A stretch of DNA of 64,000 nucleotides. Source: TPA_inf: Saccharomyces. Taxonomy: Eukaryota. Of the stretch, positions 22,722-52,829 are shown in pieces. The stretch spans positions 64,001-128,000 of the forward strand of contig BK006936.2 of assembly GCA_000146045.2 (NCBI GenBank), in the 5' to 3' direction. Position 1 is the stretch's first letter. The number at the start of each line of letters is the position of its first letter. A model generated the notes under the pieces. It had not been told where the DNA came from. It saw only the letters and a program-made list of their open reading frames with translations, and did no database searches. A program made the position numbers and the translations under genes.

Positions 22722-23789
22722 TTATGGCCTTTGGTAATAGAGACCGCCAACAATGGTAGGGTTGTGCTCATCATCCTCGTCATCCCTTTCTTCATCACTG
22801 ATACCGTAAATAAGAGCGTCGTCTTCATTGTCTTTACCAAGCAATTCTGGATATTTGTTTTCCATTATCTTTTCTGTGTTGTGTAGGGAGTTTTTTTGAA
22901 ATGACGAATACAGACAAATATTCCAAACTCGTTCATTCAACAAGATGTCTGAGTATTGTTCAGGCAATGTCTTTATCTGATAATATAAGATTTCGTCTAA
23001 TTTATCGAGCATATGTTTAGGCACCGTAGCGCTTGAACATATCAGTTCGATCATAGCATGCCATTGCAAACTCGACCCGTAGTTACCAAAAAACATGGCA
23101 TTTAAGAACGCAAACTGCAACTCCCCAAAATAATTACTTGAATTTTTAAAAATTCCTTGTAGCATTACAGTGTTCAAGTAGTAAGACTTGTCTAAAAAAT
23201 CCTCCATTTCATGGCCAGGCCTTATGGCTTCTCTAGATTTGAAGTTTATTACTGTATAGTTTAAAGAATGTGCAGGATCATCTTCATTCTTGGCTTCCAT
23301 TTTAGAACCTGCTTTTTGCAAGCTGGATTTTAGCAGCTCATTTTCTTGAACTGTGGTCATCGAAGAATCTACGTAAGAGAACTGGTTTTCATCTTTCCTT
23401 ACTATCTTTCGGATTTTATCCATCTGCACAAACTCGGTAAGATTGTACCAGGTATCATCTTCGTCAATTTTCGGATAAGAAACCATCATCTGCCGTTCCT
23501 TGAAGTTGTGAACAATATTCTCGAATTTTGCGCCATCCCTTTCTTCCATCATTTTGTAAAGGCCATCTTTAGGATCATACTGAATGTAAAAGTTTCCCAT
23601 TCTACAGTCAAACCAGTAGCCATACCTCATGCTGGAATTATCTGCATGCTGAAAATGAATGACATGAACGTGTCCAATGGGGATGTCCTTGATTCCGTGA
23701 AATGGCTGATTCTCCTTGACATTAAAGGAATACTGATCGATCCCTATAGTTACCTCAATCGGAGCAGATGTAAATGGTACAGTATTCAT
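22722..23789 (-). CDS. AAR2: AAR2, U5 snRNP assembly factor
   Basis: 355 aa (MNTVPFTSAPIEVTIGIDQYSF...). The ATG is at 23789. Confidence 0.9.
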   Translation of the reverse strand: MNTVPFTSAPIEVTIGIDQYSFNVKENQPFHGIKDIPIGHVHVIHFQHADNSSMRYGYWFDCRMGNFYIQYDPKDGLYKMMEERDGAKFENIVHNFKERQMMVSYPKIDEDDTWYNLTEFVQMDKIRKIVRKDENQFSYVDSSMTTVQENELLKSSLQKAGSKMEAKNEDDPAHSLNYTVINFKSREAIRPGHEMEDFLDKSYYLNTVMLQGIFKNSSNYFGELQFAFLNAMFFGNYGSSLQWHAMIELICSSATVPKHMLDKLDEILYYQIKTLPEQYSDILLNERVWNICLYSSFQKNSLHNTEKIMENKYPELLGKDNEDDALIYGISDEERDDEDDEHNPTIVGGLYYQRP

Positions 23790-23957
23790 TGCAGGCTTCC
23801 GATATTTTATTTTTTAGCCCCATGTCCCAGCGATAAGGAGGATCTTTGGTGTCCATTCATCTCATTAAACCCTAAACCATTGAAATATTCGTGTTCGTGC
23901 GTCGCGATTTTTTCCGCTTTCAAGATGTGTCCTTTCTTCATCTCTTGGTTCTTATAA
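23646..23957 (+). CDS. YBL073W: Dubious ORF YBL073W, overlapping the 5' end of AAR2 on the opposite strand
   Basis: 103 aa from the ATG at 23646. The ORF-track start at 23346 is a TTG. It has no domain. Confidence 0.2.
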   Translation: MLKMNDMNVSNGDVLDSVKWLILLDIKGILIDPYSYLNRSRCKWYSIHCRLPIFYFLAPCPSDKEDLWCPFISLNPKPLKYSCSCVAIFSAFKMCPFFISWFL

Positions 23958-24188
23958 AAGGGCGCCGCAAACCCCTCCTAATTACTTTTTCCTTTTCACA
24001 TCCCATGGGTTTTATCTTATACCAAATGTTTACCATTCTGAATCGTATAGCCAACAAGTAACCACAGCTGCAATTGTGAAAAAAATTGATAGGTGTGGTC
24101 ACCCAACTGTTTTTTTCTCTTTTTCTTTTTTTTTTTTTGAAATGGCTAGACGGTGCTTTTGCTGGTAAAAGAAAAACTCTTGTTTCAA

Positions 24189-24280
24189 TTTAACATGATG
24201 AAAAAATATATTAACACAGACCTGTACTGAACTTTTCGAAGTTTTGCAGATAACAATATTGCTTTTTTTCTCTGACTTTA
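24189..24280 (+). ncRNA. SNR56: C/D-box snoRNA, most likely snR56, which guides 18S rRNA Gm1428
   Basis: C box ATGATGA lies at 24195..24201, D' CTGA at 24227..24230 and terminal D box CTGA at 24272..24275. The 12 nt upstream of D' (ACACAGACCTGT) are complementary to the conserved 18S sequence ACAGGUCUGUG. The fifth residue upstream of D' is a C, which would pair with the first G of ACAGG. Exact ends are not determined. Confidence 0.6.
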
Positions 24281-24522: not shown

Positions 24523-25125
24523 CTATTTCTTAGCAGTCAATCTTCTTAGGTAGAAAGCTAATTCTTCACCTTCCAAGATGTAACCATCACATCTACCGGA
24601 TTGACCTGGTCTGGAAGAGATACAAGCGTATAATCTACCGGCGCTGAATTGAGATTCAACGGAAGATTCGATCTTGGCAGAAGCAGCTCTAGCAGCCCAC
24701 TTTCTTTCAGCGTTCTTGCTCTTGGCAACAGTTTCTTCTTCCTTGACGTTCTTCTTCTTACCCAAGGTTTGACCGTAGTGAGCTTCGAACCATTGTCTGA
24801 ATGGAGTAGCATCAATTTGGACAATGGCAGCCTTGGTCAAAGTGTTAGTTCTAACCAATTCATTGTTGGATGGATGGTAAACAACACCAGCAATTCTGGT
24901 CTTCTTGGAGATACCTTCAGAAGCCCAAGAAAAGTTACCGGTTTCAATTCTTAGAGCTCTGTATTTCTTGTTACCACCTCTAGTTCTAACAGAGTGAATT
25001 CTCTTAGCACCGATCTTGGTGTTGGCTGGTTGACGGCCTAATTCGAACTTTCTCTTCTTTCTGAATTGAGCACGCTTGGCACCGGTAGCGGATCTTTTGT
25101 GACGAGAATCACGAGAAATACCCAT
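24523..25125 (-). CDS. RPS8A: RPS8A, ribosomal protein S8 (eS8)
   Basis: 200 aa ([39 protein letters not shown]...). The ATG is at 25125. Confidence 0.95.
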
Positions 25126-51572: not shown

Positions 51573-52829
51573 TTACTCTCCAAATATCTTACAGGTCGTC
51601 TTCCACGTGGTATCTATCAAAGTAGCCAGATCCACGTCCTTGACTTCCGATACGACAATTGCTACTTGTTCCATATTACAAGGCTCATTACGGCCCTTGA
51701 CCATGTAAAGTTCTTCTGCATTCAACTTGTCAGCGAGCTTATTTTTCTTAACGGACTTGAATGCAGGGTATTCGAAATCCCTAACCTCCTGGTATTTGGC
51801 TAAGTACTGGAAAGATGCATGCGTTCTTTTAATCTCACACCACGGAGCATCTGTCTCTAATAACAACCTTTCTGTTGGTATTTGCTTTACAACAGCTAGA
51901 TTTTCCTCGGTTCTCAACGAGCAACCGTTTACTCCTATGAAGATGTTGGGTGATAAGTTCAGTAATTTCTGCAAATCTATCGCAGAACCAGTGAATGAAT
52001 GGACCACTAGTTTTCTATCTGGATGAAATTTGTAAAACCCGCTAGACGACGATGCACCTAACTTTTGTAGCTGAAAGGTATCCCTCTCATCAGTGAACCC
52101 GGCAATAAATCTTTCCAATATTTGAACAAAATCGTCACATGCGCTTCTCATATGCAGAAACAATGGATAGCTGCTGAGTTTATCGTTCAAACAACTTATT
52201 TTCAGTTGCTCTTCAAAAAAAACCTTTTGCATCTCTTTAGAACTATAGTGAAATCTGTCGTAGTCCAACCCGATCTCACCAATTGACCTGAAACTTGTAT
52301 CATGAGGTTTTGCTTGCTGATTCATCAAATCATAAAGCTCTTTCAGTTTACCCTGTGCAAAAGATGGATTACTAATAACTTTAGCATATAGAGACTCATT
52401 ATATGCTTCATCCATGGAAGGGTTATCAATAGAAGCGCTAGCCTTGTCCCCTTGACTAGCATCCGCAAACTCGTTAACGCAACATGGGTGAACACCTATT
52501 GTGTGATACAGCTTTAACGGGCTAAGATCTTTGACGCTGCTTACCAACTCAATGGCACTTTGAGACTCCGCTATGGATGATCCTGTAACAAGGGCATTTT
52601 TCACGTGCCTCTGAGCAGCACGCTCTAATAATTTTACATAATCTGCTGGATGGTACTGCTTACCATTGTAAATACCGTGAAACATAGGATCTGTCAGATT
52701 CAATCCAATATCATAGTATTTCAGCGGAGAATCCGTGGCAGTTGATGTCATGCTATAATATTGTGTCAAAATTGGTTTCCAGAGCCTAGAACAACTTTTG
52801 TTCGAGGATTTCAATAAGATGCCCCACAT
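51573..52829 (-). CDS. YBL055C: YBL055C, TatD-family Mg-dependent 3'-5' exonuclease/endonuclease
   Basis: 418 aa from the ATG at 52829 (MWGILLKSSNKS...). The ORF-track start at 52856 is a TTG. It has the TatD-type metal-dependent hydrolase fold. Confidence 0.85.
   Translation of the reverse strand: MWGILLKSSNKSCSRLWKPILTQYYSMTSTATDSPLKYYDIGLNLTDPMFHGIYNGKQYHPADYVKLLERAAQRHVKNALVTGSSIAESQSAIELVSSVKDLSPLKLYHTIGVHPCCVNEFADASQGDKASASIDNPSMDEAYNESLYAKVISNPSFAQGKLKELYDLMNQQAKPHDTSFRSIGEIGLDYDRFHYSSKEMQKVFFEEQLKISCLNDKLSSYPLFLHMRSACDDFVQILERFIAGFTDERDTFQLQKLGASSSSGFYKFHPDRKLVVHSFTGSAIDLQKLLNLSPNIFIGVNGCSLRTEENLAVVKQIPTERLLLETDAPWCEIKRTHASFQYLAKYQEVRDFEYPAFKSVKKNKLADKLNAEELYMVKGRNEPCNMEQVAIVVSEVKDVDLATLIDTTWKTTCKIFGE

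Follow-up and report, generated by a model that had tools for sequence, protein, structure and literature searches.

The window (the whole 64-kb stretch of DNA analysed here) contains a small non-coding element on the plus strand, located in the gap between two protein-coding genes of the minus strand, AAR2 and RPS8. When 4227 Rfam families were scanned against the window, only one of them reached its gathering threshold, namely RF01188 (snR56), whose covariance model matched the plus strand at 24191–24277 with 78.3 bits (gathering score 54, E = 5.2e-09) and over its full length, from model position 1 to 84 of 84. No tRNA gene was found in the whole 64-kb window. The element is divergent from AAR2 (YBL074C) and convergent with RPS8A (YBL072C), and the features of the locus are as follows.

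22722–23789, minus strand: AAR2, 355 aa, with Pfam domains AAR2 PF05282 and PF20981.
23868–23875, plus strand: AACCCTAA, putative Tbf1-type site in the promoter from which AAR2 and SNR56 diverge; the CCCTAAA motif (23870–23876) does not vary among four Saccharomyces species.
23953–23960, plus strand: TATAAAAG, likely TATA box of the SNR56 precursor; its core and the bases around it are shared by four Saccharomyces species.
24078–24117, plus strand: hairpin of the 5' leader for processing by Rnt1p (RNase III); 18 stem positions, 15 of them paired, and a UGGU tetraloop at 24096–24099.
24191–24277, plus strand: snR56 box C/D snoRNA; extent of the mature region according to the Rfam RF01188 match.
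24195–24201, plus strand: C box AUGAUGA; UGAUGA is invariant in 10 species.
24215–24225, plus strand: methylation guide CACAGACCUGU; 11 Watson–Crick pairs with 18S 1425–1435.
24227–24230, plus strand: D' box CUGA (perfect), invariant in 10 species.
24229–24244, plus strand: putative short hairpin of the D'–C' spacer, GAACUU-UUCG-AAGUUU, from fold prediction.
24245–24250, plus strand: C' box UGCAGA (degenerate, two positions off UGAUGA), invariant in 10 species.
24257–24265, plus strand: accessory element UAUUGCUUU, complementary (G-U included) to 18S 1416–1424.
24272–24275, plus strand: D box CUGA, conserved in 10 species.
24523–25125, minus strand: RPS8, 200 aa, with Pfam domain Ribosomal_S8e PF01201.

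A sequence-only reading of this DNA had called a C/D-box snoRNA in the AAR2–RPS8A gap, and the call is borne out by the Rfam match together with the flanking genes. It had placed the element at 24189–24280; the locus is right, although the RNA matched by Rfam is slightly narrower at both ends. The annotated gene is probably 88 nt long and begins at window position 24190. The three motifs on which the call was built are all present, with ATGATGA at 24195–24201, an internal CTGA at 24227–24230 and a terminal CTGA at 24272–24275, the whole spanning 81 nt. Boxes alone, however, prove nothing. On its own, the pattern ATGATGA-N15-35-CTGA-N30-60-CTGA is found a single time in the window (0.21 expected), and at least one occurrence turns up in 20 of 100 shuffled sequences, which is within chance expectation. 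Of the window's 452 CTGA sites, three are directly preceded by an 11-nt perfect complement of rDNA, where about 1.2 would be expected, and the whole RNA folds no better than its shuffled counterparts (z = -0.7), as is usual for C/D snoRNAs.

These observations are what one would look for if box-like motifs and a short rRNA complement had come together by chance in an AT-rich intergenic spacer that yields no functional RNA. That explanation is already refuted by the Rfam match and by cross-species conservation, and we regard its residual probability as negligible. The covariance model, at an E-value of 5e-9, is matched over its full length; nine other species have the same boxes and guide at the syntenic site, with flanks that are not conserved; and published deletion and processing data exist for SNR56. 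Moreover, the two other CTGA sites that carry an 11-nt rDNA complement, at 52205 and 47926 on the minus strand, have no C box within 110 nt and are therefore chance matches. The significance of the SNR56 call thus comes from the combination of features scored by the covariance model and from the conservation in nine other species.

For this comparison, orthologous loci from ten other Saccharomycetaceae species were reached via their Aar2 homologues. The gene order RPS8–AAR2–HSP70 is kept in nine of the ten; in E. gossypii only RPS8–AAR2 is shared, with different genes downstream of AAR2. A match of the snR56 model above its gathering score (57–80 bits), located in the RPS8–AAR2 gap and in the same orientation, was likewise obtained in nine of the ten species, these being S. 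paradoxus, S. kudriavzevii, S. uvarum, N. dairenensis, L. thermotolerans, E. gossypii, K. lactis, Z. rouxii and T. globosa. In V. polyspora, a search confined to the locus returned no snR56 in the 156-nt RPS8–AAR2 gap (L013:3844-4001) even at E <= 1, and snR56 of this species must lie elsewhere or have been lost. We aligned the S. cerevisiae snoRNA with the nine matches. In this ten-species alignment UGAUGA, ACAGACCTGTACTGA (the guide together with the D' box), the TGCAGA of the C' box and the D box are invariant, and the flanks and the D'–C' spacer diverge.

The flanking Aar2 protein is 100% identical to S. cerevisiae Aar2, and the 87-nt snoRNA sequence is the same in all four S. cerevisiae strain contigs compared. 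These two identities show the window to be S. cerevisiae DNA and the element to be SNR56 in the AAR2–RPS8A gap. We therefore identify the element at 24191–24277 of the plus strand as SNR56, the S. cerevisiae gene for the box C/D snoRNA snR56, with a probability of about 98%; none of the evidence contradicts this identification.

To define the target, we used an independent copy of the 18S sequence, which was retrieved by exact-pattern search of metagenome contigs and delimited with Rfam RF01960 (L015:3001-4800), giving exactly 1800 nt. The complement of the guide is unique in this 18S sequence, and the guide duplex has an energy of -20.3 kcal/mol. Counting back from D', the fifth nucleotide is C24222; it pairs with G1428, the G of ACAGG that comes first, exactly as the sequence-only reading had it. 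The same reading had described 12 nt antisense to a conserved 18S segment; the complementarity holds, but its length is 11 contiguous Watson–Crick pairs (positions 2–12 upstream of D'), because at position 1 A24226 is opposite A1424. Within the guide, ACAGACCTGTA is invariant in 10 species. A box C/D methylation guide is expected to have an antisense stretch of at least 10 nt that ends next to D or D' and a target opposite the fifth position, and the element has this arrangement at D'.

That the target G is methylated as Gm1428, also part of the original claim, agrees with published work. snR56 has been assigned to Gm1428, and the snr56-delta strain loses exactly one Gm, corresponding to one fifth of the Gm of 18S rRNA (PMC4344503). 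In an independent report, Gm1428 is ~100% modified and is lost in snr56-delta (PMC5199042). The residue lies in helix 34, in the decoding centre, with human Gm1490 and A. thaliana Gm1431 as its counterparts, and its loss slightly raises -1 frameshifting, by about 1.2-fold (PMC2794176). The name snR56 therefore stands, on the strength of the full-length RF01188 match, the assignment of G1428 by the +5 rule, the position in the AAR2–RPS8 gap and the published deletions.

We also weighed whether the RNA could be a box C/D snoRNA of a different family, or could have a different or additional methylation target, for example via the guide slot of the D box. In a fungal snoRNAome study, snR52 and snR56 share a clan in which targets have switched (PMC5824354), and the slot upstream of D does hold a conserved element. 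Rfam, however, keeps the best family per clan, which here is snR56. As to a second target, a search of 18S and of the 3.8 kb of rDNA downstream of it (up to the last ~400 nt of 25S) gave no Watson–Crick complement longer than 7 nt to the sequence immediately upstream of D. The UUGC core of the conserved element is not adjacent to the D box, lying 8–11 nt from it, and it matches 18S beside G1428, giving no new site. Lastly, snr56-delta removes one Gm only (PMC4344503). A different family or target is consequently very improbable, and we retain the identification as SNR56, with its D' guide directed at G1428.

The accessory element UAUUGCUUU can form a helix of 9 bp with 18S 1416–1424, immediately 5' of the guide target, and no other site on 18S gives the accessory region a better duplex. 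Guide and accessory element together cover 20 consecutive 18S nucleotides, 1416–1435. A UUGC core is present between C' and D in 10 of 10 species, and is followed by C in the six outside Saccharomyces. Van Nues et al. 2011 (PMC3116282) name snR56 among 11 yeast C/D snoRNAs that make extra base pairs, whose unused guide slot likewise holds a conserved element, set apart from the D box and complementary to the rRNA that immediately flanks the methylation site; to this the present alignment adds that the core is found in every species compared. From the complementarity and conservation seen here, and by analogy with the function proposed in that study, the accessory pairing probably stabilises the interaction between snR56 and 18S. 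An extension of the same proposal would be that snR56 could hold or chaperone the helix 34 segment (1416–1435) of the decoding centre during 40S assembly, beyond its role in methylation, an idea that we put forward as speculative and unlikely. A separate stretch, UGAACUUUU (24228–24236, comprising the D' box and the 5' arm of the spacer), can pair, G-U included, with 18S 1408–1416, which borders the accessory target. As the spacer sequence varies from species to species, this pairing is probably a chance one.

Inside the snoRNA, a D'–C' spacer hairpin is predicted in eight of the ten species, its sequence differing between lineages. The hairpins are weak in each species, with 1.6–16% of shuffles folding at least as well, and none is predicted in L. 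thermotolerans or Z. rouxii. These fold predictions are no more than suggestive. When RNAalifold was applied to the ten snoRNAs, an invariant CUGUA/UGCAG helix was its sole result; the spacer hairpin escaped it because the variable spacer is misaligned by MAFFT. The CUGUA/UGCAG helix pairs the 3' end of the guide (24222–24226) with part of the C' box (24245–24249); since all ten sequences are identical at these positions, the pairing is beyond the reach of covariation. The sequence-only reading had added the caveat that a clear terminal stem is missing, and rightly so, as no convincing one was found: S. cerevisiae can form at most 4 bp (UUAA/UUAA), which S. paradoxus lacks. From the alignment, read by eye, 5-bp terminal stems are possible in L. 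thermotolerans and Z. rouxii. A terminal stem is absent from many yeast C/D snoRNAs.

Upstream of the snoRNA, three elements are common to the four Saccharomyces species: CCCTAAA, the TATA box and a 20-nt block around GGTGTGGTCACCCAACT, the last of which forms the top of the extended hairpin at 24078–24117. CCCTAAA belongs to the putative Tbf1-type site, and Tbf1 is described as a main factor at snoRNA promoters in a passage of PMC4138321 that cites Preti 2010. The likely TATA box is located ~70 nt upstream of a segment, chrII 88021–88158, that is raised in rnt1-delta. Downstream of this box, the precursor would start at around 24000–24030. A scan for bacterial promoters and terminators was uninformative for this yeast locus. 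In the 3' flank we found one UCUU, two CUUG and one GUAA as Nrd1/Nab3 motifs, too few for a terminator to be placed.

Rnt1p substrates are NGNN-capped stem-loops that are cut about 14–16 bp from the loop. Judged by its sequence, the predicted 5'-leader hairpin at 24078–24117 is such an NGNN-capped stem-loop. Its fold is predicted in each of the four Saccharomyces species (z -1.8 to -3.4), with a UGGC loop in S. kudriavzevii. With the strands in register, 82% of cells are paired, compared to 44–69% when the partner is slid; covariation did not exceed the shuffle control with four close species, which are too few for it, and the register control alone favours the structure.

The hairpin was found independently, before it was matched with a published substrate. 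The 50 nt at 24073–24122 of the window are identical to the snR56 Rnt1p substrate listed in S1 Table of Gagnon et al. 2015 (PMC4334505), where it is assigned to class G2 (NGNN loop) and credited to Ghazal et al. 2005. The snR56 signal is given as ‘G2’ in that table but as ‘BHNN’ among the sequenced cleavage products of the same paper. The product itself was sequenced at chrII 88081–88115, within the segment 88021–88158 that rises in rnt1-delta (PMC4334505). An offset of 64000 between chromosome and window, which we infer because it makes the product symmetric about the loop, would place the product at window positions 24081–24115. Its two arms beside the loop would then measure 15 and 16 nt, which is what Rnt1p cleavage should give. 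This offset also fits the SGD coordinates of AAR2 and RPS8A. Grzechnik et al. 2018 (PMC5934358) further place SNR56 among the uncapped C/D snoRNAs, report a NET-seq signal where Rnt1 cleaves, and find less methylation in rnt1-delta at the position guided by snR56. The supplements of PMC13183374 have no SNR56 entry.

In five of the six yeasts outside Saccharomyces, an AGNN-capped hairpin precedes the C box by 42–81 nt, and Z. rouxii has a weaker AGNN-capped hairpin 32 nt upstream. The mode of processing therefore looks conserved, but its sequence does not. The only AGNN loop candidate in the S. cerevisiae leader, AGAC at 24148, was rejected: it has a poor stem, and reads AAAC in S. paradoxus and GAAC in S. 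kudriavzevii. The true leader signal of S. cerevisiae is the UGGU loop, not an AGNN loop.

Two other properties of the leader were noted. A T-rich tract at 24111–24139, just 3' of the Rnt1p hairpin, is ~20 nt longer than in S. paradoxus, S. kudriavzevii and S. uvarum, and varies by one T between S. cerevisiae strain contigs. In the minimum-energy fold of the leader (z = -2.9), a long-range helix of ~16 bp (24006–24025/24163–24182) encloses both the Rnt1p hairpin and the T-tract; on reading by eye it is not obviously kept in S. paradoxus.

We propose that SNR56 is expressed and acts as follows. Pol II would transcribe the gene alone, divergently from AAR2, into a precursor that carries a 5' leader, as the conserved TATA box and published data indicate. 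Rnt1p, following the published cleavage, would cut the leader on both sides of the UGGU-capped hairpin at 24078–24117, after which 5'–3' exonucleases would trim the RNA back until they meet the snoRNP, a few nucleotides short of the C box, as in the established pathway. The C/D and C'/D' box pairs would then assemble Snu13, Nop56, Nop58 and the methyltransferase Nop1, as is known for the family. For a stable RNA of about 90 nt bound by these four proteins, the evidence is indirect and comes from the published deletion, NET-seq and cleavage-product data on SNR56. The guide upstream of D' would pair with 18S 1425–1435 in helix 34, and G1428, which by the computed geometry is opposite the fifth nucleotide from D', would be 2'-O-methylated on its ribose, in line with the published dependence of this modification on snR56. 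The slot upstream of the D box would serve no methylation target, and its element UAUUGCUUU would pair instead with the adjoining 18S 1416–1424.

The gene, its target, the Rnt1p processing signal and the accessory pairing have all been published before, and nothing here is new. The value of the analysis is as a check on the scan: a reading of raw sequence recognised a real non-coding gene that is invisible to the ORF track, and named its target correctly. Compared with S. cerevisiae SNR56 and RF01188, the element agrees in the model match, the order and spacing of the boxes, the G1428 guide, the AAR2–RPS8A locus and the Rnt1p leader hairpin, and no difference was found.

Beyond the yeasts, human U25 (SNORD25) and plant snoR19 belong to the same Rfam clan as snR56, CL00049. 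They are its functional equivalents, in that a D' guide acts on the same universally conserved ACAGGUCUGUG and on the homologous G of helix 34. Human U25 is intron-encoded. A homologue table lists U25 and snoR19 for snR56, and the Neurospora homologues are reported to be intron-encoded (PMC2780460). The comparison of U25 and snoR19 with snR56 covers the boxes and the guide. The yeast snR56 gene, unlike the intron-encoded human U25 and Neurospora homologues, is an independent Pol II unit with a 5' leader processed by Rnt1p.
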